Below the pieces are notes generated by a model. The model was given only the letters and a program-made list of their open reading frames with translations. It did no database searches and had not been told where the DNA came from. From positions 19,096 through 83,095 of the forward strand of contig CAZTNC010000015.1 of the NCBI GenBank assembly GCA_964614915.1: a DNA stretch of 64,000 nt. The letters run 5' to 3'. This stretch comes from an uncultured Thiotrichales bacterium (lineage in GTDB: Bacteria; Pseudomonadota; Gammaproteobacteria; UBA4575). Made by a program: the position numbers and the translations under genes. Shown one piece after another: positions 50 to 15,005 of this stretch. Position 1 is the first letter of the stretch, and each line of letters starts with the position of its first letter.

Positions 50-1231
50 TCAGAGCAACTGACCAAAAATCCTGAAGCCCGCCACATACGTCCCGATTGC
101 AGAGCCCAGGGTGCTCAGCACGAATACCAACAGCGTCTTGGCGACGGCGTTTCTGCGCCAGCCCGAAAAGGTCGCTGTATCCTTGCGCAGTTCCCGAAAA
201 TCCTTGACCGTAGGCTTGCGTACGATTAGTTCGACCGCGGCTGTGACCATGCCTGCACCGATCGTGGGATTCAGGGATGTGATCGGGGCGGCGACAAAGG
301 CTGTCCCCACAGTCACCGGGTGAGCACCGGCAATGGCCGCACCGAGCGCAGACAGGCTGCCATTGATGAAGACCCACTGCCAGACGAGTTTCCAGCCCAG
401 TTCCGGGCTTTCCCGGAAACCGAAGTAGAACCCAGTCCCGATCAAGATAACAATGACCCACGGGATGAGTTTGGGCCAGGATTTTTTGGGAGGAACTGTA
501 TCCAGCTCCCGGATGAGCGCGGACGCATCCAGGTCTTTGTCATCCAGGTGTCTTGTCATGCCTTTCAGGTGACCGGCCCCCACAACTGCAAGCATGCTTT
601 TACCTTCGTACACTTCAAGTGCCTGAAGGATTTTTGCCGCCATGTACTGGTCGCGCTCGTCGATCAGCGGGACAGACAGTTCCCGGGTTTGTTCTGCAAA
701 CTGCGTGAACGCGATCTCAAGGACATCCCCGCTTTTTAATTGCTCGATTTCCTCTTCGGACACTTTCTGGTGTGTGAGCGCACCTGCAAACAGTCCGGCC
801 ACCAGGTAAATACGCTTCCAAAACGACATATTCCGGTAGACCCGATTGAGCGTGACCCCGACTTCACGGTCAATCAGCACAACCGGCAGCCCGAGAGCAG
901 AGGCTTCCTCGATCGCAGTCTTCATTTCAAGACCCAATTCCACCCCCAGCTGTTCCGCCATTCTTTGCTGGTAGGCGCCCAGGGCCAGATGCGCCGTCAC
1001 CAGGTTGGCCCGGCCCTGGCGGATCACCGCAAACAGGTCCATTTCGGCCAACTGTTCGGGATGCATCAGCGATTTGCGCCGGCTTTGACACAGCTCGATG
1101 CAGATAACGTCATATTCCTTCGAGCGGATCATTTGACGGACAGCTTCGGCACTCGCTCGTGAGACGTGAGCTGTACCTAGTAGGGTAACTCTGCTTTTGC
1201 CGACCAGCAGGGATTGCAGCGGTTCGCTCAC
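50..1231 (-). CDS. TraB/GumN family protein (pheromone-shutdown TraB-like)
   Basis: 393-aa ORF with N-terminal TraB-type region (GTAHVS...EYDVICIELC) and C-terminal hydrophobic segments; family-level recognition of the translated sequence. Confidence 0.7.
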   Translation of the reverse strand: MSEPLQSLLVGKSRVTLLGTAHVSRASAEAVRQMIRSKEYDVICIELCQSRRKSLMHPEQLAEMDLFAVIRQGRANLVTAHLALGAYQQRMAEQLGVELGLEMKTAIEEASALGLPVVLIDREVGVTLNRVYRNMSFWKRIYLVAGLFAGALTHQKVSEEEIEQLKSGDVLEIAFTQFAEQTRELSVPLIDERDQYMAAKILQALEVYEGKSMLAVVGAGHLKGMTRHLDDKDLDASALIRELDTVPPKKSWPKLIPWVIVILIGTGFYFGFRESPELGWKLVWQWVFINGSLSALGAAIAGAHPVTVGTAFVAAPITSLNPTIGAGMVTAAVELIVRKPTVKDFRELRKDTATFSGWRRNAVAKTLLVFVLSTLGSAIGTYVAGFRIFGQLL

Positions 1232-1294
1232 GTTTTGCAGATCTTCAAAATTACAGGAAATGATCTCATAAAAAGATAGAATATAACGTGATAA

Positions 1295-1651
1295 CTATTT
1301 ATATTCATTATATTTTTTAGAACTCCCTCTCACCTTATCCTCAGGGTAGCGCTGGTGGTTCAAGGCTACCTTCTGACGGGTAGCCTCCACCAGGTTCACG
1401 TCTAGACGGTCAGCCAGGCGAAGCAGGAAAATAAAGACGTCGGCCATTTCAAGGGCCACCGCAGCATGCTTTTCCGGGTCCAGTTGCGCACTTTGCTCTT
1501 CTGTCATCCACTGGAAATGCTCCACCAGTTCAGCGGCTTCGACCGACAGCGCCATCGAGAGGTTTTTGGGACTGTGGAACTGTTCCCAGTCTCGTGCCTT
1601 TGCAAATTCCCGAAGCTCCAGTTTCAGTTCATCCAGGAGTTGCTCGCTCAT
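1295..1651 (-). CDS. MazG-like nucleotide pyrophosphohydrolase (small NTP-PPase family)
   Basis: 118 aa; EAAELVEHFQW ... EMADVFIFLLRLA motifs typical of small MazG-like NTP pyrophosphatases. Confidence 0.65.
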   Translation of the reverse strand: MSEQLLDELKLELREFAKARDWEQFHSPKNLSMALSVEAAELVEHFQWMTEEQSAQLDPEKHAAVALEMADVFIFLLRLADRLDVNLVEATRQKVALNHQRYPEDKVRGSSKKYNEYK

Positions 1652-1717
1652 TTAGGTTTTCCCTCCTACTCAATCCAAATCGTCGCCTGCCCGCGAAGGC
1701 CGGCTGCCCATTCTGCG

Positions 1718-2494
1718 TCAGCAGCTCCGAGCTGCGCACGTTGAACATTGAGGATCCTTGTTTATCTTCACGCTGTGCCATTCCATATTCAGCGCATCTA
1801 CAAGCAGCATCCTGTCCGCAAGCGTTCGGCCCGTATCCAGCAACAGCTTGATTGCTTCGGTCGCCTGGATGCATCCGATCAACCCGGCCACCGAGCCCAG
1901 GATGCCGGTCTCTGCGCAGCCTTCCTCAAATTCTCCCAAATCAGGATACAGGCAGCCGTAGCAGGCACTGGTATCGCGCATGGTAAACACCATCACCTGA
2001 CCTTCAAAGCGGATAGCCGCACCCACCACCAGGGGTGTACCGGTGTTCACGCAGGCCTCATTGATGGCGAAGCGTGCCGTGAAGTTGTCCGTTGCATCCA
2101 GCACGAGGTCCGCTTTCTCAACTTCCTGCCTGAGTCTTGTCCCAGTCAATGCCGCATTGATCGTGCGTACCGTGGTCTGCGCATTCAATGAAGCCAGGGC
2201 CCGGTTGGCCGCTTCGACCTTTTCATCGCCCACATTGTCATTGCGGTAGATGATCTGCCTTTGCAGGTTGGATGCATCGACCCTGTCCGGATCAACCAGT
2301 GTCAGGCTGCCGATGCCGCTGGAGACGAGATACATGGCTGCCGGGGAGCCGATGCCGCCAACTCCGAACAGCAGCACTTGGGAGGCGAGCAGTTTCTGCT
2401 GACCCGCAATATCGATTTGAGGCAGCATGATTTGACGGCTGTAGCGCAGCAGTTCCTGATCACTCAGATCCAGGTTTTGAGCCTCCTCGTCCAC
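1718..2494 (-). CDS. moeB: molybdopterin-synthase adenylyltransferase MoeB (ThiF/HesA family)
   Basis: RYSRQ...GVGGIGSPAAMYL Rossmann/ThiF motif, C-terminal CxxC pair; adjacent divergent mobAB. Confidence 0.85.
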   Translation of the reverse strand: MDEEAQNLDLSDQELLRYSRQIMLPQIDIAGQQKLLASQVLLFGVGGIGSPAAMYLVSSGIGSLTLVDPDRVDASNLQRQIIYRNDNVGDEKVEAANRALASLNAQTTVRTINAALTGTRLRQEVEKADLVLDATDNFTARFAINEACVNTGTPLVVGAAIRFEGQVMVFTMRDTSACYGCLYPDLGEFEEGCAETGILGSVAGLIGCIQATEAIKLLLDTGRTLADRMLLVDALNMEWHSVKINKDPQCSTCAARSC

Positions 2495-2520
2495 GGCAGC
2501 CCTAGCACAACCACGCGATG

Positions 2521-2838
2521 TCAGTTCTTCTCACGCCGTGCCTGGCCTTCGGCAAACGCCTTCTTCTGCTCGGCAGTCGCTTCTTTCTGGTAACGTGATT
2601 TCCATTCAGCATAAGGCATTCCGTAGACCGTTTCCCGGGCTTGGTCATAGTCGATCTCAATTCCTTTTTCCTGCGCTGCCGCCACGTACCATTTCGAGAG
2701 GCAGTTGCGGCAAAAGTCTGCCAGGTTCATCAAATCAATGTTCTGCACTTCGGTTTTTGCACGCAGGTGTTCAACCAGCCTGCGATATACGGCGGCTTCA
2801 ATTTCCAAACGGTCCTGATGACTGACCGGATCACTCAT
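2521..2838 (-). CDS. DUF1244 domain protein
   Basis: ORF 2521-2901; most likely start is the ATG at 2838 (MSDPVSHQD...) preceded by GAGGAGA; CRNCLSKWY core resembles DUF1244. Confidence 0.55.
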   Translation of the reverse strand: MSDPVSHQDRLEIEAAVYRRLVEHLRAKTEVQNIDLMNLADFCRNCLSKWYVAAAQEKGIEIDYDQARETVYGMPYAEWKSRYQKEATAEQKKAFAEGQARREKN

Positions 2839-3040
2839 GCTGCTCTCCTCGATTGTATGAATTCTACAGGCCGTGGATGGTGGGCCCTGCTCTCCCTTCA
2901 ATAGGCGGTCATCCGCATGCGGTCCGGTCCCGTAACAGGTGTCCGTCTGCCGGGAAGCAGATCAGATGATTATGCCCTTTGCTATTATATTTGTAATTCA
3001 TGGAAGGTTTCATGAGATTCTTCAAGACGCAGGGTATACG

Positions 3041-3640
3041 GTGTTGAGCAAGCAGAAAATTACAGGCCTCATCCTCGCAGGGGGTCGCGCAACCCGCATG
3101 GGAGGCCAGGACAAGGGGCTTGTCGAGATCAATCACCAGCCCATGATCGCATACGTCATCCAAGCCCTTCGGCCGCAGGTCTCAGAAATCATGATCAACG
3201 CGAACCGCAACCACAGCAAATACCGGAAGTTCGGGCATCCTCTGGTAGCTGACGAAATTACAGGCTTCCAGGGCCCGCTTGCCGGCATGGCGGCGGCCCT
3301 GAATCAGGTCTCCACCGACTATCTCTTCACCTGCCCCTGCGATGGGCCGCTGCTGCCAGCGGATGTAGTGGCCCGCCTGTATGCGGCCCTGCGCAAACAG
3401 GATGCCGAGATATGCGTAGCGCATGACGGGGACCGTTTGCAACCGGTCTGTGCCCTCATCGACTGTAGGCTGCGGGGCAGCCTACTGGCGTACCTCGGGG
3501 GTGAAGATCGCAAGATCGAACACTGGTATCGCAACCACAGATTTACCCAGGCCGACTTCAGTGATAAAAAACACTGCTTTCAAAACGCCAACAGGCCGCA
3601 GGACCTGGGCATGTTGTCCCAATATCTGAAGGGTCAGTAG
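3041..3640 (+). CDS. mobA: molybdenum cofactor guanylyltransferase MobA
   Basis: ITGLILAGGRATRMGG-DKGL motif; the ORF is open from GTG 2939 (alternative ATGs at 2966/2972), but the GTG at 3041 gives a canonical ~199-aa MobA; start uncertain. Confidence 0.8.
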   Translation: MLSKQKITGLILAGGRATRMGGQDKGLVEINHQPMIAYVIQALRPQVSEIMINANRNHSKYRKFGHPLVADEITGFQGPLAGMAAALNQVSTDYLFTCPCDGPLLPADVVARLYAALRKQDAEICVAHDGDRLQPVCALIDCRLRGSLLAYLGGEDRKIEHWYRNHRFTQADFSDKKHCFQNANRPQDLGMLSQYLKGQ

Positions 3641-3645
3641 CCGTC

Positions 3646-4440: not shown

Positions 4441-5751
4441 ATGGCAGAGCGCACTGTTACGGTAACCGACAACACGACCGGAAAGGCGGTCGAATTGCCC
4501 GTATTGGAGGGCACCAACGGCCCTCGCACCATCGATATTGGGAAACTGTACAAGGGCCTGGGCTATTTCACCTATGACCCGGGCTTTGTTTCCACGGCCA
4601 GCTGTGACAGCCGCATCACTTTTATCGACGGCGAACAGGGCCTGCTGCGTTACCGGGGCTATCCGATTGAACAGCTGGCCGAGCACAGTTCCTTCCTAGA
4701 GGTCTGCTACCTGCTCCTGCACGGCGAGCTTCCGAACAAGGACGCCTTCGATGCCTTTGAGGAGCGGCTGAAGATGCATACCCTGCTCGATGAGAAGATG
4801 CGCCGCTTCTACTTGGGTTTTCACAACAACTCGCACCCGATGGCTATGATGGTGGCTACGGTGGGCGCGATGTCCGCCTTCTACCATGACCAGATCGATG
4901 TGCACGATGCCGCTTCCAGGGAAACGGCCGCCTACCGCCTGATTGCCAAAGTACCGACCATGGCCGCCTGGGTCTACAAGTACACGGTGGGCCAACCCTT
5001 CATGTACCCAGACAATCGTCTGGACTATGTGTCGAACTTCCTGTACATGATGTTCGGGGTACCTTCCATGAGTTACCGTCCGAGCCCCTCGTTCGTGCGG
5101 GCCATGGACCTAATACTCATATTGCATGCTGACCACGAGCAGAATGCCTCCACCTCCACCGTACGACTGGCCGGTAGTTCGGGAGCTAACCCCTATGCCG
5201 CCTTATCCGCTGGCATCAGTTCGCTCTGGGGTCCTGCCCACGGCGGGGCGAATGAAGCCGTCATCAACATGCTTGAAGACATTGTGCAGTCCGGCAAGGA
5301 CGTCAACTACTACATCGAACGGGCCAAGGACAAGAACTCCAGGTTCCGGTTAATGGGATTCGGCCACCGAGTCTACAAGAACTATGACCCGCGCGCGAAG
5401 ATCATCCGGGAAGTCTGTCACCAGCTGTTGAGCGAACTTGGCGATGACAATCCCAATCGACCCCTGTTCGATACCGCCATGGAACTCGAGCGCATTGCTC
5501 TGGAGGACGATTACTTCATTCAGCGCAAGCTGTACCCGAATGTGGACTTCTACTCCGGGATCATTTTGCGTGCGATGGGAATCCCGCTGAACATGTTTAC
5601 CGTGATCTTTGCCCTGGCCCGTACGGTCGGCTGGATTTCCCATTGGAAAGAACACATGAGCGACCCGCAGGCCCGCATCGGCCGTCCCCGTCAGCTGTAT
5701 ACGGGAGAGGACCAGCGCGACTACGCGCACATCGACGAGCGCGACGACTAG
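4441..5751 (+). CDS. gltA: citrate synthase (type II, hexameric-type)
   Basis: 436 aa, full-length similarity to GltA including the catalytic His/Asp regions (GFGHRVYK). Confidence 0.92.
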
Positions 5752-8862: not shown

Positions 8863-9231
8863 TCATTCAATCTCTTGGCTCAGACGGGCCAGGATGCCAG
8901 GGATTTCCTTTGCCGCCCCTAGGTAGGGAGTTGACGTGATTCGCACCTGCGGGTATTCCTGCCTGGCTTTCTCAATCTCTGCAGGGATATCCACGCTGAC
9001 ATGCCGACCTGCAGCAAGGAAATAGGGCAGCACCGTAATGTGTTTTGCACCTTTTCGCACACAGCCAAGCACCCCCTCGGAGATGGAGGGTTCGGTGATC
9101 TCCAGGAATGCGAAATCAACCCAGTCGAATTGATTCCCCGGAGTTTGTGCAATTTTTGCAGCCAGTGCCCGGATTTCATCACTGGAACCGGGATGGCGGC
9201 TGCCATGGGCAACCAGCAGCAATGCGTCCAT
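8863..9231 (-). CDS. cbiX: sirohydrochlorin chelatase CbiX (small form)
   Basis: about 120 aa; LLVAHGSR N-terminal motif and overall CbiX-small pattern; ATG at 9231 (TTG at 9237 is an alternative). Confidence 0.7.
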   Translation of the reverse strand: MDALLLVAHGSRHPGSSDEIRALAAKIAQTPGNQFDWVDFAFLEITEPSISEGVLGCVRKGAKHITVLPYFLAAGRHVSVDIPAEIEKARQEYPQVRITSTPYLGAAKEIPGILARLSQEIE

Positions 9232-9373
9232 TCGCAAATCCTAGCATGAACGTCGTGCTGCAGCGTATTTTGGCCGCGCCTGCATGAAGGCAAGGTCGAC
9301 GAGGCCAGCACAGCGGCACTTTGGTTTACTAATGTAGCAATCCTCTGTATAACGCACCCGAACAGAGGTTTTC

Positions 9374-9817
9374 ATGACCGAAATCACGCTAGAAATCGCC
9401 AATACAATCATTGATGCTGCCCTCCGGGAAGGCCGCACGCGCAAGCTGGCACCACTTACAGTTGCCGTACTGGATGCCGGCGGCCACCTCAAGGCTTTGT
9501 CGCGGGCGGATGGCGCAAGCTTCATGCGCCCGATGATGGCCGTAGCAAAGGCCTGGGGCGCGATCGGTGTCGGTGTCTCATCACGCACACTGGGCGAGAT
9601 GGGCGAGCAGCGGCCAATGTTCATGAATGCCCTGGTCCAGGTTGCTGACCAGCGGCTTTTACCCGTGCCCGGAGGCGTGCTCGTCCGAGATTCCGACGAT
9701 GCGATCATTGGTGCAGTCGGCATCTCCGGCGATGTGTCCGACCAGGACGAATCTTGTGCCGTTGCGGGAATCAGTGAGGCCGGGTTGCAGGCGGATACGG
9801 GAAAGCCCCAGGAGTAA
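9374..9817 (+). CDS. GlcG/HbpS-like haem-binding protein (DUF336)
   Basis: 147 aa, ...GAVGISGD... C-terminal motif typical of DUF336/GlcG; last core gene before the AT-rich island. Confidence 0.7.
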   Translation: MTEITLEIANTIIDAALREGRTRKLAPLTVAVLDAGGHLKALSRADGASFMRPMMAVAKAWGAIGVGVSSRTLGEMGEQRPMFMNALVQVADQRLLPVPGGVLVRDSDDAIIGAVGISGDVSDQDESCAVAGISEAGLQADTGKPQE

Positions 9818-9823
9818 ATTTTG
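9815..9823. repeat. left copy of a 9-bp direct repeat TAAATTTTG flanking the AT-rich island (right copy at 13695-13703)
   Basis: exact 9-mer at both GC-content transitions; an inverted TTATGTAG/CTACATAA lies just inside each copy. Confidence 0.3.
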
Positions 9824-9848
9824 GGAATTATGTAGCTAAGTTGACAAA

Positions 9849-10034
9849 ATGAATAAAGCAGAAAAGACAAAAAGAGAATATTTTGCTGAACTTAGTAAAA
9901 ATTATAAAAAACGTAAAGAGTATGAATGTGAATTAAATAATGCCATAACCATGGTTCATAAAACATTTGCTGTTTTAGATAAATTACTTAACGACTACTA
10001 CAAACTGTTTCCTGAACGGAAAAAGCAGAAATAA
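9849..10034 (+). CDS. hypothetical Lys-rich small protein (61 aa)
   Basis: ORF in very AT-rich DNA, where long ORFs are unlikely by chance; no convincing RBS. Confidence 0.2.
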   Translation: MNKAEKTKREYFAELSKNYKKRKEYECELNNAITMVHKTFAVLDKLLNDYYKLFPERKKQK

Positions 10035-10212
10035 GTTTTTCCATTTTCTCTAATTTCTCTATCAACGTTTCCGAAGCGTTTTCTAACTTTACGATTTCTT
10101 TTCTTAGTGATTTTGATAGATGGTGACCAGCTATTGTTTCTGTTTTAACTAATGTCTCTATCAGAACTAGCATCATTATTTCCAGGGCTTCGTAATTCCC
10201 ATTATTTCCCAT
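9988..10212 (-). CDS. hypothetical coiled-coil small protein (74 aa)
   Basis: GAGGGG Shine-Dalgarno 8 nt upstream of the ATG; heptad-like Lys/Glu-rich sequence; overlaps the 3' end of ORF 9849-10034 convergently. Confidence 0.35.
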   Translation of the reverse strand: MGNNGNYEALEIMMLVLIETLVKTETIAGHHLSKSLRKEIVKLENASETLIEKLEKMEKLISAFSVQETVCSSR

Positions 10213-10250
10213 CTTTATCCCCTCATTTTAGTTTTAAATAAATACGAAAC

Positions 10251-10279
10251 TTGACAAAATAATATTATTTCACTAATAT
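10251..10279 (+). promoter_or_regulatory. sigma70-type promoter TTGACA-N17-TAATAT upstream of the IS1595 transposase
   Basis: consensus -35 and near-consensus -10 with 17-bp spacer, about 80 bp upstream of the transposase ATG. Confidence 0.5.
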
Positions 10280-10358
10280 AGTGTTATGTTAATTCGTAAT
10301 GTAACACCTTACAGTGCAGGTTAAAAACAAACCAGTCGTCCTGAGTCTCTACGAAATC

Positions 10359-11246
10359 ATGGATCGATACAAGACCAAGGAAGACGCCATTTGCTACTTT
10401 GAAAAAATGCGATGGGGTGACAAGCCCGTATGCGTCAAGTGTGGTTGTACAGGCAGGATTACGGCACAGAAGAAAGTCGGTGATTACTGGTGTGGAGACT
10501 GCCGGAGTTACTTTAATGCTTTCACTGGCACTCCACTAGAACGCAACAAGGTAGACCCTCGCAAGTGGATTTACGCCACCTACACCCTGATGACTTCACG
10601 GAAAGGTATTTCCAGCCTTCAACTGTCCAAAGAAATTGGTGTGCAGCAGCGCACTGCCTGGTACATGCTGCACCGGCTGCGTCTGGCCTGCGGCGACAAT
10701 ATGGAAGCCTTGCACGGTGAAGTTGAAATGGATGCAACATACATCGGTGGACTTGAAAGGAACAAGCACGCTGACAAAAGGTTGAAGTCCGGCAGAGGTA
10801 CGGTAGGTAAACAGGCTGTGCTCGGTATGAAACAGCGCGAAGGACGGGTAAAGGCCATATCGGTTGAGGGTGAAGACAAGGCAACTATTCACAGTGCTGT
10901 TCTTGCAAATATTGAAGTGGGTACGACTATCTATACAGATGATCATAGGGGCTACAAGAATATCGGCGGGACTATATACAAACATCAAACCGTCAAGCAT
11001 TCGGCAAAGGAATACGTGAATGGCATGGCTCATACCAACAGCGTCGAGTCTGTATGGTCAGTGCTCAAACGCGGCTTCAATGGTGTCTATCACAATTGGA
11101 GCAAAAAGCATTGCCAACAGTACGTGAACGAATTTACCTTTCGGCTGAATGAAGGGAATTGTGATCGAGACACCCAGGACCGGCTCGACGATCTGTTCAA
11201 GGCGATGTCGGGTAAAACGATAACTTATAGAGCGCTGACTTCTTGA
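10359..11246 (+). CDS. IS1595 family transposase (N-terminal zinc ribbon plus DDE_Tnp_IS1595)
   Basis: CVKCGC...CGDC zinc ribbon; IYTDDHRGY, HTNSVESVWSVLKR and YVNEFTFRLN motifs characteristic of IS1595/ISXO2-like transposases; ORF open from 10314, ATG at 10359. Confidence 0.85.
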   Translation: MDRYKTKEDAICYFEKMRWGDKPVCVKCGCTGRITAQKKVGDYWCGDCRSYFNAFTGTPLERNKVDPRKWIYATYTLMTSRKGISSLQLSKEIGVQQRTAWYMLHRLRLACGDNMEALHGEVEMDATYIGGLERNKHADKRLKSGRGTVGKQAVLGMKQREGRVKAISVEGEDKATIHSAVLANIEVGTTIYTDDHRGYKNIGGTIYKHQTVKHSAKEYVNGMAHTNSVESVWSVLKRGFNGVYHNWSKKHCQQYVNEFTFRLNEGNCDRDTQDRLDDLFKAMSGKTITYRALTS

Positions 11247-11279
11247 GCGTAGTCTTGCTGTTATTCAAACAGCGTTCAG

Positions 11280-11813
11280 TTAAGCGGAATTTTCTGCACG
11301 TTTAAAATCTTTTGCAGAAAACCGGTACCAGTTGCGGAACAAATGTTGCCACCACTTTACTGGTTGAAAATCATCTGAGCCAAACCCAAGCGCCTGTGAT
11401 GCGGCATTTCCGCACTCAGCATTAAGAGCGTGATAGATAGCAGGTTCATCCTCATAAACGCTGAGTATTTCTTGACGCCACTTATGTATTTCCTTTTCAT
11501 CAGCTTTATACACGTCGATCATCTTGGCAATTTCATAAAAACGCTTCGCAAGAAATTCATGGTTACGTGCCCTGTCTGCCAGGCCCCACACCATGTTGAT
11601 AGCCCCTATTGTAGTGGGTATAAGCATGATAAACATGGCAACTGCTTTGTTGGCTTCTGCAAGCTGCCACACGGCATAACTGCCTGACAGCAATACTGCT
11701 ACCATCAGCCACCTGTGCCATTTATCAAAAAAAGATCGTCGTGCAGTGTGGTAGCGAGCGCTACGGTCACAATCATGCAGAAAATCTTTTGCTTCCTGTT
11801 GCAGATCAGTCAT
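11280..11813 (-). CDS. two-TM membrane protein with about 100-aa cytoplasmic C-terminal domain (SLATT-like architecture)
   Basis: 177 aa; TM helices at about aa 35-51 and 57-78; start ATG overlaps the stop of the upstream peptide gene (ATGACTGA). Confidence 0.55.
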   Translation of the reverse strand: MTDLQQEAKDFLHDCDRSARYHTARRSFFDKWHRWLMVAVLLSGSYAVWQLAEANKAVAMFIMLIPTTIGAINMVWGLADRARNHEFLAKRFYEIAKMIDVYKADEKEIHKWRQEILSVYEDEPAIYHALNAECGNAASQALGFGSDDFQPVKWWQHLFRNWYRFSAKDFKRAENSA

Positions 11814-11949
11814 TTTTTCTCGGCGGTGTTACATCTCTTGGAGGTTCGTTAGAGTGAGTCTTATCTGGCGAATCATGTGCAGGTATATCTTTAGGTGGCG
11901 GCGGCGGCGGTTGGCGAACAGGTTGCGGCTCTTTTCTATCCTTTGACAT
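11806..11949 (-). CDS. proline-rich small protein (46 aa, MSKDRKEPQPVRQPPPPPPKD...)
   Basis: not in the supplied ORF track (<60 aa); AAGGAG Shine-Dalgarno 6 nt upstream of the ATG at 11949; stop overlaps the start of the downstream 2-TM gene. Confidence 0.35.
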   Translation of the reverse strand: MSKDRKEPQPVRQPPPPPPKDIPAHDSPDKTHSNEPPRDVTPPRKND

Positions 11950-11994
11950 GGTCATCTCCTTAAAAATACTAAGTTTAGTTTAACATTTTTTTAA

Positions 11995-12996
11995 TTATTC
12001 ATGAGGTAGAGGACAATCTATGCAGCCTCCTGGAGGTGGTGTAGCACCTGAATTGGAATTCTTGAAAGCGGCAGTTGACCCATAAAAAGCCCCGACAAAA
12101 CTTACAGGGCCTACATTGGTTATTGTCGCAGAACCTCCATGGGTTCCTGCCACCATGCGAGGGTTGCCATCAGAATCATCTTCAGACGAGAATCGACCAC
12201 CCCAACGTCCTCCCATATTGGCAACACCCAGTTGCGGATTCTGAAGCACCACCTCGCTTCCAGTAAACGAGCCGTCAGCATTGATGCTGGCGTCAATTAG
12301 CTGGAGTACGAATGGAGTCAGCACGTACCGGCCTCCCTGTAGCAATTCTATGTTCGTAATATCCCCGTCAACGGTCATGGCCCCGGTACTGAAGTCTGCT
12401 TCAAGAAACAGGCTGCCCCGGTACTCTCCCGTAGCCGAACCAAGTACGTAGGTGCCACCTGTAATCCCGTTGTAATCGACTTCACCTACGTTTACGGGAA
12501 TTGTCGGCTGTGTAGACGTTGAAAATTCTTCGCCGTCCACAAAAGCCCCGATTTCCACGCTTCCACCCGATGATCTGTAGGACCAGTACCCACCCGCCAG
12601 GTAGTCCGTAGCATCACCCGAATTCCAGTCCACCAACACACCGGCTCTAACGTTGCTTCCAACCAAAGTACCTGTCTGGGACATTCTTCCCGTAACTGAA
12701 CTGGTTTCAGGATTCTGGATGATGGAAGAACCGCTCGTATTCAATGTAAATGAACTACCTCCTGCACGGGCTACCGTGACTTCAAAACTTGATCCGGGTG
12801 TGAAACGTGTACTGATGGTGTCCGAAGCTACTGCCTGGATAATACTTGTCCCAAACACCGGTGGTGACATGGCGGCTCGTTCTGCGGCATCACTGTAGGA
12901 TACGGGTGGGTTGACAGGGGCAGGATCGCTTCCGCCTCCACCTCCGCCTCCACAGGCGGACAGCAGCACTAAGGCTGCACATAGAATTCTTCGCAT
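11995..12996 (-). CDS. surface-lipoprotein-like protein with fHbp/TbpB-type C-terminal beta-barrel signature
   Basis: lipobox LLSAC followed by a GGGGGGGS tether; G-YRG-LF-EADF-TG-M-VDGDI resembles the G.YRG..F...A.F.DF...G.I motif of neisserial fHbp/TbpB barrels; ATG at 12996 with a GAGG Shine-Dalgarno (ORF open from GTG 13035). Confidence 0.6.
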   Translation of the reverse strand: MRRILCAALVLLSACGGGGGGGSDPAPVNPPVSYSDAAERAAMSPPVFGTSIIQAVASDTISTRFTPGSSFEVTVARAGGSSFTLNTSGSSIIQNPETSSVTGRMSQTGTLVGSNVRAGVLVDWNSGDATDYLAGGYWSYRSSGGSVEIGAFVDGEEFSTSTQPTIPVNVGEVDYNGITGGTYVLGSATGEYRGSLFLEADFSTGAMTVDGDITNIELLQGGRYVLTPFVLQLIDASINADGSFTGSEVVLQNPQLGVANMGGRWGGRFSSEDDSDGNPRMVAGTHGGSATITNVGPVSFVGAFYGSTAAFKNSNSGATPPPGGCIDCPLPHE

Positions 12997-13182
12997 GGTT
13001 GCCTCGCGTAAAGTGACGTTTTTTACTTCCGACACAAGGGTGCCGGGCCATTGTCACTGTACGCAAGTATGCGGATAGTTCCTGCCTATTCGCCGTGTGT
13101 CAGATAGCTACTTCTGACACATATATTCGGCTGTTGTATTCAGTAGGTAACCCGACTCTGGATTACTCACGCACAGTGACAG

Positions 13183-13191
13183 TGTTATAAT
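13183..13191 (+). promoter_or_regulatory. extended -10 promoter TGTTATAAT for the small two-gene cassette
   Basis: TGnTATAAT about 30 bp upstream of the AAGGA Shine-Dalgarno and ATG at 13223. Confidence 0.45.
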
Positions 13192-13222
13192 AGGCTTACA
13201 GATTAATCTGCACAAGGACCAA

Positions 13223-13386
13223 TGGATAAGATTCAGGAAAAGATAGACAAGGTTGCTAAAACCTTGTTAAACATGCCTGCTCCACAAGAGCACAAACGCA
13301 CGATTCCCACCAAGAAAGACCTTGAACGCAAGTTTGTCATGCGGGTTGACCGCAAAGGCAAACCATCTGTACGTGAGATCAAATGA
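13223..13386 (+). CDS. hypothetical hydrophilic small protein (54 aa)
   Basis: not in the ORF track (<60 aa); good Shine-Dalgarno; stop overlaps the start of the next gene (ATGA). Confidence 0.35.
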
Positions 13387-13580
13387 TGATTGTAGAATTT
13401 TTAACAATGATCACGGCTGCTGCTGTGATTGTAGGGATGCTTGTAAAATTATATTTTAAAATTGATCGATTAGAAAAAAGACTAGATAAGCTAGGTATTA
13501 CCAAAGTCACATACAGTAAATACCCTGCAGACATTGATCATATGGAAGACGGAGAAATCTGGGTGCAATACGAAAAATAG
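13383..13580 (+). CDS. hypothetical small membrane protein (65 aa, one N-terminal TM helix)
   Basis: translationally coupled to the ORF at 13223-13386. Confidence 0.4.
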   Translation: MMIVEFLTMITAAAVIVGMLVKLYFKIDRLEKRLDKLGITKVTYSKYPADIDHMEDGEIWVQYEK

Positions 13581-13694
13581 CGTTTAAGTTTAAATATTAT
13601 TTTTCACGTATCTTCTGCTTGAATCTCATCATATAAGAACTAAAACTTGGCTAAGGTATCCCCTGTACCCTGCCAAGTTAACTACATAAGTCCC

Positions 13695-13703
13695 TAAATT
13701 TTG
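13695..13703. repeat. right copy of the 9-bp direct repeat TAAATTTTG flanking the AT-rich island
   Basis: exact match to 9815-9823; followed by the hairpin CCGGGC-N9-GCCCGG. Confidence 0.3.
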
Positions 13704-13776
13704 TACCGGGCGGTGATGCTGCCCGGAATCGAACACCAGCAAGATTTTCGTTCCACCGTGTATTTTGGGAGAGACT

Positions 13777-14961
13777 ATGATTAAGCCTCACGGAGCCGAT
13801 GCCTTAAAGCCTTTGTACGTCAGTGATGAGGTGCAGCGCAAGCAGTTCGTACAGGAGGCGGAACACCTGCCCTCCGTACTGTTGAACTCGGCAGCTTCCT
13901 GCAACGTCGTAATGCTCGGAGCCGGCTACTTCACGCCACTTTCCGGGTTCATGAATATCCAGGACTCGATCTCGGTCGCCAATACCATGCATACATGTGA
14001 CGGGCTGTTCTGGCCCGTCCCGATCATGAACCTTGTACAGGACGCATCTTCCATAGAACCCGGCATGCGCATTGCGCTGAAAGACCCGAATATGGATGGG
14101 TTCCCCGTGATTGCGATCCAGGAGGTTGAAGCCGTTGAAGAACTCGGTGAAGACCAGATGGCCACCATCGTGGAGAAAACGTACCGCACCACGGATCAGG
14201 ACCACCCTGGTGTGGCAACCATCATGGCATCGGGGAGGACAGTGATCTCAGGCCCTATCCAGGTGCTCAATTACAGCTATTTCCAGGATGAGTTCCCGGA
14301 AACGTTCCGTACCGCAGTCGAAATCCGTGATGAAATCACCGAGCGAGGCTGGCATACCGTGGTGGGATTCCAGACCCGCAATCCGATGCATCGTGCCCAT
14401 GAAGAGCTGTGCAAGATGGCGCAGCAGGCCACGGGCGCGGACGGTATCCTGGTCCACATGCTGCTGGGGAAGCTGAAACCCGGAGACATCCCAGCCCCCG
14501 TTCGGGATGCCGCGATTCGCAAAATGGTCGAGCTCTATTTCCCGCCCAACAGCGTCATGATTACAGGCTACGGATTCGACATGCTGTATGCCGGCCCGCG
14601 TGAAGCTGTCCTGCATGCGGTCTTTCGCCAGAACTGTGGCTGTACGCATTTCATCATCGGCCGCGACCATGCCGGAGTGGGCGACTACTACGGGGCGTTT
14701 GATGCCCAGGAAATTTTCGATGAGGAAGTGCCCCCGGACGCGCTGGAGATCGAGATCTTTCGTGCCGACCACACGGCCTATTCCAAAAAGCTGAACCAGG
14801 TCGTCATGATGCGTGATGCACCTGACCACCAAAAAGAGGACTTTGTTCTGTTGTCCGGCACGAAGGTCCGTGCCATGCTGGCGGCCGGCGAATCCCTGCC
14901 GAAAGAATTTGCCAGACCGGAAGTCGCCGAAATCCTGATGGATTTCTACCAGAGCGCATAA
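13777..14961 (+). CDS. sat: sulfate adenylyltransferase (ATP sulfurylase, dissimilatory-type Sat)
   Basis: QTRN and GRDHAG motifs; full-length match to homo-oligomeric ATP sulfurylases of sulfur oxidisers; ATG at 13777 after GGGAGAG. Confidence 0.9.
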   Translation: MIKPHGADALKPLYVSDEVQRKQFVQEAEHLPSVLLNSAASCNVVMLGAGYFTPLSGFMNIQDSISVANTMHTCDGLFWPVPIMNLVQDASSIEPGMRIALKDPNMDGFPVIAIQEVEAVEELGEDQMATIVEKTYRTTDQDHPGVATIMASGRTVISGPIQVLNYSYFQDEFPETFRTAVEIRDEITERGWHTVVGFQTRNPMHRAHEELCKMAQQATGADGILVHMLLGKLKPGDIPAPVRDAAIRKMVELYFPPNSVMITGYGFDMLYAGPREAVLHAVFRQNCGCTHFIIGRDHAGVGDYYGAFDAQEIFDEEVPPDALEIEIFRADHTAYSKKLNQVVMMRDAPDHQKEDFVLLSGTKVRAMLAAGESLPKEFARPEVAEILMDFYQSA

Positions 14962-15005
14962 GCTGCTGCGCACCGCCTGCAGACCACGGCGACGTCTGCA
15001 CGCAC

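Follow-up and report, generated by a model that had tools for sequence, protein, structure and literature searches.

What do a short divergent control region and two small, overlapping genes without recognizable products represent in the genome of an uncultured Thiotrichales bacterium? The question arises at positions 13037-13580 of a 64,000-nucleotide stretch of that genome (GTDB lineage Bacteria; Pseudomonadota; Gammaproteobacteria; UBA4575; GenBank assembly GCA_964614915.1, contig CAZTNC010000015.1, positions 19,096 to 83,095 of the forward strand), here called the window, whose numbering is used throughout unless a related locus is named. A first-pass annotation, made from the sequence of the window alone, had described a translationally coupled cassette of two open reading frames (ORFs), a 54-amino-acid basic protein (ORF1) followed by a 65-amino-acid membrane protein (ORF2), and had suggested a toxin/regulator or phage-derived pair with nested inverted repeats in its control region. 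Comparison with related loci gives a different answer: the two genes and their control region make up the right-hand module of a seemingly intact insertion sequence (IS) of the transporter type, belonging to the IS1595 family. We consider it probable that this module combines ORF1, a passenger gene (ORF2), and a minus-strand leader RNA that would act as a switch for a neighbouring lipoprotein gene. The mobile-element setting was thus anticipated correctly, whereas the pair was not.

Transporter ISs are ISs that carry passenger genes, a concept whose first description PMC3129680 attributes to the IS1595 family paper. The boundaries of the element follow from related loci in other genomes, which carry L-numbers here (L002 to L024). 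Two of these, L002 and L003, lie on one 2.5-Mb contig and share a 3,985-bp match that is 99.975% identical and set in unrelated flanks, which is evidence that elements of this kind have moved. The element proper measures 3,982 bp there, ends in 24-bp inverted repeats (GGGACTTATGTATTTAACTTGACA), and is enclosed by differing 8-bp duplications. Because the same ends are found in the window, the window element is placed at 9823-13694 (3,872 bp). Its left terminal inverted repeat (IRL; GGGAATTATGTAGCTAAGTTGACA, 9823-9846, plus strand) matches the reverse complement of the right one (IRR; 13671-13694, minus strand, reverse complement GGGACTTATGTAGTTAACTTGGCA) at 20 of 24 positions, and identical octamers, TAAATTTT, stand directly outside both repeats (9815-9822 and 13695-13702) as the target-site duplication. 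The GC content of the element is 45%, compared with 55-56% for the flanks; across the stretch from about 9700 to 13700 it ranges from 30 to 50%, compared with 55-60% on either side.

The transposase gene (10314-11246, plus strand) encodes an apparently intact IS1595-family DDE transposase of 310 amino acids. It matches PF12762 in Pfam at an E-value of 9.8e-43 over positions 2-153 of 153, the zinc ribbon PF12760 at 1.1e-6, and NF033547 at 7.4e-55, above the cut-off of that model; it is 87% identical to the transposase of L002/L003 and 64-71% identical to those of L006, L007, L009, and L021. Terminal repeats of the window type also bound nine other elements, including L002/L003, L006, L007, L013, L019, and L021, and complete elements with 8-bp duplications of their own were recovered at L006, L007, L013, L019, and L021. 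The duplications of related elements read AAATTAAA, GAAACTTG, ATTTAAAT, CAAATAAT, ATAATTTA, AAGCTTTC, TTTATTTA, CAATTTAA, and AAATTCGA. The same kind of inverted repeats flanks derivatives that lack a transposase (L010, 4154-6119; L011, 920-6163; L017, 2439-3507), with exact 8-bp duplications in L010 and L011 and agreement at six of eight positions in L017. The window IRL GGGAATTAT would fit a consensus ascribed to the ISNwi1 subgroup in ISfinder/TnPedia, 'ggnnatTAT'. In every feature of an IS1595-family transporter IS that could be checked, the window element agrees with the family.

The 64-kb window holds a single copy of the element. The hosts of related elements, represented by metagenome-assembled genomes, include Opitutales, Nitrosomonadaceae, Gammaproteobacteria, 'Porisulfidus', and Thermodesulfobacteriota. 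Contigs that carry close ORF1 homologues share one layout, in which the transposase gene is followed by variable genes and these by ORF1. At the DNA level, only two blocks are conserved between the window and its relatives, namely the transposase block and the segment 13033-13390, which comprises the control region and ORF1. The second of these blocks is the subject of most of what follows.

ORF1 occupies 13222-13386 on the plus strand; the first-pass annotation had placed its start one nucleotide too far downstream, at 13223. The product is basic, as had been noted (isoelectric point 10.2; 16 lysine and arginine residues versus 8 aspartate and glutamate residues). The Shine-Dalgarno sequence AAGGA was found at 13214-13218, three nucleotides before the ATG, and the extended -10 element TGTTATAAT at 13183-13191 was confirmed by comparison, its form TGYTATAAT being invariant across the window and four other distinct loci. 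ORF1 belongs to a family with 9 close cluster representatives (57-91% identity) and 84 distant ones, the latter from a profile search of 1.8 billion representative proteins. Nearly all of the 84 distant clusters are 50-60 amino acids long, and the source annotations of family members are hypothetical throughout. Among approximately 18 related loci, no conserved gene stands between ORF1 and the right inverted repeat at any locus with identifiable ends. The ORF1 stop codon lies 12-48 nucleotides from the IRR in L006, L007, L008, L010, L012, L019, L020, and L021, and greater distances occur only at loci with an additional inserted gene. In the derivatives without a transposase, ORF1 is intact in L017, reduced to a C-terminal remnant in L010, and matched only over residues 15-54 in L011.

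Such constant proximity to the right inverted repeat, together with the persistence of ORF1 in at least one element devoid of transposase (L017, intact), would also be expected if the conserved feature were not a protein but cis-acting DNA of the transposon end, such as sub-terminal binding sites for the transposase. The pattern of substitution, however, makes this alternative extremely improbable. Differences between the window and L006 are concentrated at third codon positions (12, 6, and 38 at positions 1, 2, and 3), with 27 synonymous against 14 non-synonymous codon changes; the codons used for the invariant core PTKKDLERKFVMRVDRKG (KFVMR) differ synonymously between distant elements; and both the frame and a length of 52-58 amino acids are maintained over dozens of clusters, down to approximately 35% identity. 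The variation in synonymous codons also led us to reject the notion that the DNA coding for KFVMR is a copy of the inverted repeat. We conclude that ORF1 is a genuine protein-coding gene and that it is under purifying selection.

The function of ORF1 can be approached only tentatively. An AlphaFold2 model built on a 60-sequence alignment (mean predicted local distance difference test score, pLDDT, of 88) runs from a helix (residues 2-16) through a proline-rich basic linker to a short helix (31-34) and a beta-hairpin (37-53). The predicted template modelling score (pTM) of 0.35 suggests that the modelled protein may be non-globular and bind a partner. Nothing significant was found for ORF1 in Pfam, NCBIfam, PHROGs, or PADLOC, and 60 family members had no Pfam match; a sequence profile search of the PDB gave a best E-value of 0.16. 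Translated searches (tblastn) of the PLSDB plasmids returned no match to ORF1, the nearest plasmid transposase being only 40% identical, and a scan of viral contigs yielded no confirmed relative. The DNA-binding regulator suggested for ORF1 in the first-pass annotation is neither supported nor contradicted by these searches, which found no fold or family match. Because ORF1 is strictly linked to the element, sits beside its right end, and is basic, our best guess for its role is that of an accessory factor with the adjacent transposon end or the transposase as its target, a role that we regard as possible while leaning somewhat against it. Two observations count against this role: the low-pTM model has no structural neighbour in the PDB (Foldseek, best E-value 2.1), and at L024, the most distant ORF1 relative examined (33% identity), neither IS1595 ends nor a transposase were found. 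One metagenomic protein, P0035 (199 amino acids), joins the N-terminal zinc-ribbon/helix-turn-helix region of an IS1595 transposase to an ORF1-like C-terminus and presumably arose from such an element by internal deletion.

Small proteins of other ISs offer the closest point of comparison. Like InsA of IS1 and OrfA of IS3/IS911, ORF1 is small and basic, lies within the terminal repeats, is co-inherited with the transposase, and is under purifying selection. Proteins of the InsA/OrfA type are encoded upstream of the transposase gene or overlap it, share its DNA-binding domain, and are often frameshift products. ORF1, in contrast, stands as a gene by itself at the opposite end of the element, and no zinc finger, helix-turn-helix, transposase similarity, or known fold was detected in it by the searches described above.

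The gene that follows ORF1 behaves differently. ORF2 (13383-13580, plus strand, 34% GC) lies in the slot between ORF1 and the right inverted repeat, and the ATGA overlap reported earlier is real, the ATG of ORF2 at 13383-13385 sharing nucleotides with the TGA of ORF1 at 13384-13386. The two small genes are thus tightly coupled behind a conserved extended -10 element, and it is probable that ORF2 shares a transcript with ORF1 and that its translation is coupled to that of ORF1. The single N-terminal transmembrane helix ascribed to the 65-amino-acid product was recovered as well: the Kyte-Doolittle maximum over 19 residues is 2.35, at residue 3, and in the AlphaFold2 prediction one long helix (residues 3-37) is followed by a low-confidence tail (pLDDT of about 50 or lower). 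Among 5.8 billion proteins, ORF2 matched only itself, and it gave nothing significant in Pfam, NCBIfam, PHROGs, or PADLOC; the earlier statement that neither product is recognizable therefore holds for these four collections.

Conservation of the gene pair in other genomes, which had been proposed as a check, is not what we observed, in that ORF1 is conserved and ORF2 has no homologue. The slot behind ORF1 is empty in most elements, at least eight of which have no downstream gene. Elsewhere it holds a 76-amino-acid cysteine-rich protein (L002, L013), a multi-pass membrane protein of approximately 170 amino acids (L005), a 55-amino-acid membrane protein (L014), or a 58-amino-acid cysteine-rich protein (L017), in each case on the ORF1 strand and starting 4-19 nucleotides past the ORF1 stop codon. 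Among elements with ORF1 proteins 80-91% identical, the slot has five different occupants. Because the contents of the slot vary from element to element and ORF2 lacks a homologue, ORF2 appears to be a passenger in a cargo slot of fast turnover and not a conserved partner of ORF1. It is a putative gene, identified by its position and by the start/stop overlap. In L005 (6165-6697) and L014 (2158-2349), the slot ORFs run into the right inverted repeat and end (…LSS*) at a TAA within it.

These observations bear directly on the possibility that ORF1 and ORF2 constitute a regulator/effector or antitoxin/toxin-like pair, in which ORF1 would bind the inverted repeats as operators and control a membrane-active ORF2. 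A small basic protein encoded 5' of a single-pass membrane protein, the ATGA overlap, the arm of the long inverted repeat that abuts the -10 element, and the small membrane or cysteine-rich protein found closely behind ORF1 in five related elements would all suit such an arrangement. Nevertheless, it is very improbable, since in most elements nothing follows the conserved ORF1, the genes found in the slot show no relation to one another, and neither protein is matched by any toxin-antitoxin or defence model. The repeats behave unlike operator half-sites, their stems varying at most positions while ORF1 remains 80-91% identical, and they co-occur with the lipoprotein gene and not with ORF1. The likeness to type II toxin-antitoxin operons extends to two small genes with overlapping stop and start codons, a basic upstream product, and a location on a mobile element; unlike in those operons, the downstream gene is variable or absent, and no toxin or antitoxin family is matched. 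On the evidence of the related loci, the type II interpretation fails at its defining property, the conserved pairing of the two genes. We therefore retain the view of ORF2 as a passenger.

If the inverted repeats do not serve ORF1 and ORF2, what do they form? The first-pass annotation had correctly described a divergent upstream region common to the cassette and the lipoprotein operon. Its palindrome TGTCAGA-N8-TCTGACA was confirmed, as a longer stem of 9 bp at 13096-13121. So was the long-range inverted pair reported with it, at a greater length and at slightly different coordinates, comprising 21 nucleotides on each side (13049-13069 and 13164-13184, with 81% complementarity; the earlier positions were off by 1-2 nucleotides). 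Together they belong to a structured RNA domain of approximately 144 nucleotides (13045-13188, most likely on the minus strand) composed of a closing helix and three hairpins. The long pair forms the closing helix, P1. Inside it, the consensus fold contains the hairpin P2 (GUAAUCC/GGGUUAC), the hairpin P3 (13096-13104/13113-13121, TGTGTCAGA/TCTGACACA, 9 bp around an N8 loop, extended by GCCG/CGGC, consensus GCCR/YGGC, with the conserved loop UAGCUA), and the small hairpin P4. Another small GC-rich hairpin, P5 (13029-13046, minus strand), which is supported by the predicted fold and one compensatory pair, lies between the domain and the segment just before the lipoprotein gene (segment A, below) and is also present in L013, L019, and L004.

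Folding of the control region, likewise suggested at the outset, gave a pronounced signal. For the 144-nucleotide region, the z-scores were -5.2 (minus strand) and -3.7 (plus strand); none of 200 shuffled sequences folded as well. Eight distinct copies of the RNA are available, of which five are close (window, L002/L003, L005, L014, L017) and three diverged (L004, L019, L013). RNAalifold analysis of the five distinct close sequences returned a multi-helix junction of P1 to P4. Across the alignment, 97.8% of cells at paired positions are paired and seven pairs show double changes, a count reached in none of 500 shuffles, while control pairings slid along the alignment were 20-42% paired. In P3, five of the nine pairs carry compensatory double changes. 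The stretch 13040-13095 does not differ between the window, L002/L003, and L005, three of the five close copies; it is nearly identical in L014 and L017 and is better conserved than ORF1. The hairpin at 13096-13121 meanwhile changes on both arms.

The diverged copies, which were found with a covariance model built from the close ones, extend this pattern. Their P1 arms have been wholly replaced in sequence, still form 16-17 bp, and show compensatory changes at nearly every P1 pair. Independent minimum free energy (MFE) folds of the L004, L019, and L013 copies each produced the same long closing helix around internal hairpins, with z-scores from -3.6 to -6.8. The unpaired stretches, by contrast with the stems, are conserved (GUCGGGUUACCU, GAAUACAAYAG, the P3 loop UAGCUA, CAGGAACU, and AUGGCCC). 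Stems that are replaced with their pairing intact, next to unpaired stretches that stay the same, bear the sequence signature of a functional RNA and not of operators or of a miniature inverted-repeat transposable element (MITE). The earlier assignment of the inverted repeats as control sites of the cassette consequently fell, since the stems change with pairing kept and the structure follows the lipoprotein gene instead of ORF1. The sample is small, comprising only eight distinct copies of which five are close relatives, and the three diverged copies were aligned by fitting them to the model; both facts temper the case for the RNA. A cmscan of 9000-15000 on both strands against the 4,227 families of Rfam gave no match at E <= 1, and the RNA motif had no match in a scan of viral contigs. 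Two other candidate features of the control region were rejected: small ORFs (31 amino acids on the plus strand, 35 on the minus strand), because the compensatory stem changes cross them, and an intrinsic terminator, because on both strands the hairpins lack a U-tract behind them.

Several properties of the region would be equally at home in DNA that acts as such, whether as protein sites for the transposase or a regulator or as a MITE-like remnant consisting of the P1 ends and flanking direct repeats. A motif of approximately 15 nucleotides occurs three times (13003-13017, 13053-13067, and 13166-13180); the segment immediately before the lipoprotein gene (segment A, described below) and the P1 arm at 13164-13184 (segment C) are direct repeats 163 nucleotides apart; the two strands fold about equally well; and the region overlaps two promoters. 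We nonetheless consider a purely DNA-level role improbable, because the diverged P1 arms are new in sequence but complementary over 16-17 bp with conserved unpaired junction nucleotides, P3 combines five compensatory pairs with a conserved loop, segment A changes together with P1 and always has the Shine-Dalgarno sequence as its end, and the structure keeps a constant position 5' of the lipoprotein gene.

The interpretation as a structured RNA raises the matter of its strand. On the minus side of the RNA lies the gene for a 333-amino-acid passenger lipoprotein (11995-12996, minus strand), the translation of which contains a lipobox (MRRILCAALVLLSAC-GGGGGGG...). A lipoprotein start codon follows within approximately 50-65 nucleotides of the RNA on the minus strand at seven of eight distinct loci (window, L002 as a pseudogene, L005, L014, L013, L019, and L004), the exception being L017. 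In the close group to which the window belongs, two promoters appear to stand back to back with overlapping -10 elements (13183-13193), the plus-strand TGTTATAAT at 13183-13191 facing a minus-strand TATTAT/TATAAC at 13193-13184; in L013, L019, and L004, a minus-strand TGYTATAC occurs 7-10 nucleotides before P1. We infer both the transcribed strand and the start site; the structured RNA would most likely belong to the minus strand. If the predicted minus-strand promoter is active, the RNA would lie in the 5' untranslated region of the lipoprotein gene.

Could the RNA instead be part of a long 5' leader of ORF1-ORF2 on the plus strand, begun at a promoter farther upstream? A promoter-like site of suitable form (TTGTCA-17-GATAGT) does exist at 13051-13079, the plus-strand fold is significant in its own right, and the L005 copy has A-C mismatches in its pairing when read on the minus strand. 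A transcript begun at that site, however, would miss the 5' arm of P1, and the conserved extended -10 element of ORF1 lies downstream of the structure. In each of the four lineages tested, the minus strand gave the more negative fold z-score, and wobble cells consistent with one strand only numbered 26 for the minus strand versus 7 for the plus strand. The distribution of the RNA points in the same direction: in L013, it is separated from ORF1 by 325 nucleotides and a tRNA-Asn gene and still adjoins the lipoprotein gene, and L006, L007, L020, and L021 possess ORF1 without any such RNA. A plus-strand leader is accordingly quite improbable in our estimation. Against the minus-strand assignment, it must be said that folding energies are similar on both strands, that the L005 copy folds better on the plus strand, and that the wobble count is biased by the use of an alignment and a structure derived from the minus strand. 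The tRNA gene of L013 is itself a cargo gene of the element (tRNA-Asn(GTT), 5455-5530, plus strand, between the RNA leader and ORF1), and a second tRNA-Asn gene is located elsewhere on that contig.

The lipoproteins found behind the RNA are themselves diverse. The window protein is 45% identical to the one behind the L004 copy; both score 18-19 bits with NF041636, the model of Slam-dependent surface lipoproteins, against a cut-off of 80, and no Pfam match was obtained. The RNA-linked lipoproteins (11995-12996, minus strand, in the window; 4583-5722 in L004; 4369-5766 in L005; 3473-5083 in L013; 2593-4503 in L019) share a lipobox with a poly-Gly/Ser tract after it and, at the C-terminus, a motif of the type G.F.G...GAFGA; otherwise they fall into at least three families barely related by BLAST. 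Such differences could be those of diversifying surface proteins.

Segment A, CGUCACUUUACGCGAGG (13002-13018, minus strand), offers a possible link between the RNA and translation of the lipoprotein gene. Its 3' end is the Shine-Dalgarno sequence GAGG of that gene (13002-13005), and it pairs with the 3' strand of P1 in a duplex that RNAduplex scores at -22.2 kcal/mol in the window (z = -5.7 relative to shuffled sequences). This alternative helix recurs at -22 to -23 kcal/mol (z = -5 to -6) in the window, L002, L005, and L014. In L013, where P1 and segment A both have different sequences, the energy is -22.4 kcal/mol (z = -5.6), and the alternative helix therefore covaries with P1. It is weaker in L019 (-14.5 kcal/mol, z = -2.1). 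The leader thus shows what is expected, on computational grounds, of a cis-regulatory switch, namely covariation, a constant position, and two mutually exclusive predicted helices.

Taken together, these features allow a mechanism to be proposed. ORF1 would be transcribed outward, toward the right inverted repeat, from its conserved extended -10 promoter, with ORF2 on the same transcript and translationally coupled through the ATGA overlap. The domain of approximately 144 nucleotides would form the 5' end of the divergent lipoprotein mRNA on the minus strand. With P1 formed (13164-13184 with 13049-13069), the lipoprotein Shine-Dalgarno sequence would be free and translation on; with the 3' strand of P1 captured by 13002-13018, that sequence would be hidden and translation off. 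This direction of switching is one that we infer from the predicted helices, and possible triggers include a ligand bound at the junction, a protein, a plus-strand antisense transcript, 5' processing, or temperature. Folded as a whole, the 210-nucleotide leader has an MFE structure in which P1 is formed and the Shine-Dalgarno region is largely open and weakly structured. An outer helix between the ORF1 anti-Shine-Dalgarno sequence and the lipoprotein Shine-Dalgarno sequence was also considered and set aside, because it would involve sequence upstream of the likely start site.

Several points weigh against a switch. The duplex test detected no alternative helix in the decayed copy L004; the 17-bp P1 is predicted to dominate the alternative helix; and a P1 of 16-17 bp is far longer than those of known riboswitches. 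A simple stabilizing leader is equally possible, as is one to which a protein or an antisense RNA binds. Compared with translational riboswitches such as the thiM TPP (thiamine pyrophosphate) and SAM-II-type (S-adenosylmethionine) classes, the window leader is similar in having a 5' domain closed by P1, covarying stems, conserved junction and loop nucleotides, an alternative pairing between the 3' strand of P1 and the Shine-Dalgarno region, and a constant link to one class of gene; it differs in the absence of an Rfam match, the length of P1, the transposon-borne lipoprotein gene that it precedes, and the small number of distinct examples (eight). The stronger proposition, that the leader represents a new riboswitch class or a ligand- or protein-sensing switch mobile with its lipoprotein gene and that ORF1 is at the same time an unrecognized cofactor of IS1595 DDE transposition that marks a cargo-carrying lineage by which defence and surface genes spread over bacterial phyla, strikes us as unlikely to be correct in both of its parts.

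The remainder of the element consists of further cargo. Behind the transposase gene lies a passenger gene for a 177-amino-acid, SLATT-like protein with two transmembrane segments (11280-11813, minus strand; phrog_11791, 1.3e-32). Its matches to SLATT_4 (3e-4) and to a PADLOC two-transmembrane effector (3e-4) are both under the curated cut-offs, and the protein may be a stand-alone membrane effector of a transposon-borne defence system. A 49-amino-acid proline-rich ORF (11806-11955, minus strand) precedes and overlaps this gene. Between the left inverted repeat and the conserved leader of the transposase gene, a stretch of approximately 400 nucleotides with 30% GC (9847-10240) is not found in related elements; it contains an ORF for a 61-amino-acid basic, coiled-coil-like protein (9849-10034, plus strand) and an overlapping ORF of 74 amino acids (9988-10212, minus strand), and looks like a third cargo slot. 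The lineage thus has three separate cargo slots, situated between IRL and the transposase gene, between the transposase gene and ORF1, and between ORF1 and IRR. Cargo across the lineage is mostly of a defence-like or surface character, including SLATT-like, NYN, and PIN-like proteins, an EcoRI-like restriction-modification pair, a methyltransferase, and lipoproteins. In L020, an N6-adenine methyltransferase and an EcoRI-like restriction endonuclease are carried together (289-3645), and two right ends occur in tandem, each made up of an ORF1 copy followed by IRR; in L011, a large N6-methyltransferase-like gene is present together with an unrelated IS that has inserted there.

At the right end of the window element, an 8-bp perfect inverted repeat, AACTTGGC/GCCAAGTT (13644-13651 and 13672-13679), has one arm within the right terminal repeat and may be a sub-terminal duplicate of a transposase-binding site. 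The insertion point lies approximately 70 nucleotides 5' of the ATP sulfurylase gene sat (13765/13777-14961, plus strand), which has the same orientation as ORF1-ORF2. No terminator is predicted between the right end of the element and sat, and the outward ORF1 promoter could read into that gene.

With the IS1595-family transporter ISs of the ISNwi1-like group, the window lineage shares the zinc-ribbon DDE transposase (PF12760, PF12762), the 8-bp duplications, the terminal repeats of approximately 24 bp that start GGG..TTAT, and the presence inside those repeats of passengers unrelated to transposition. It differs in its second conserved gene, ORF1, placed last before the right repeat, in its three cargo slots with largely defence-like or surface cargo, and in its distribution among uncultured bacteria of several phyla, with no relative found in PLSDB plasmids. 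A keyword literature search, whose reach did not include the founding IS1595 paper, returned only the general transporter-IS concept and no published description of a terminal gene of the ORF1 type. Within the searches made, a small terminal protein that defines an IS lineage and the organization of cargo in three slots appear to be new, as does a lipoprotein gene that is mobilized with its own RNA regulatory leader.

To our knowledge, transporter ISs are the smallest vehicles for moving genes that have no part in transposition. The present case illustrates that a 'toxin/regulator pair' called from a single sequence can be overturned by comparison with related loci. ORF1 provides a simple target for asking whether transposases of the IS1595/Merlin type use a helper, and the leader is a candidate RNA switch outside Rfam for which clear mutational tests are possible. 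The lineage moves defence-type and surface-protein cargo between distant phyla, mostly among uncultured bacteria, and the lipoprotein appears to travel with its own regulatory RNA, so that its regulation would be independent of the transcription factors of a new host.

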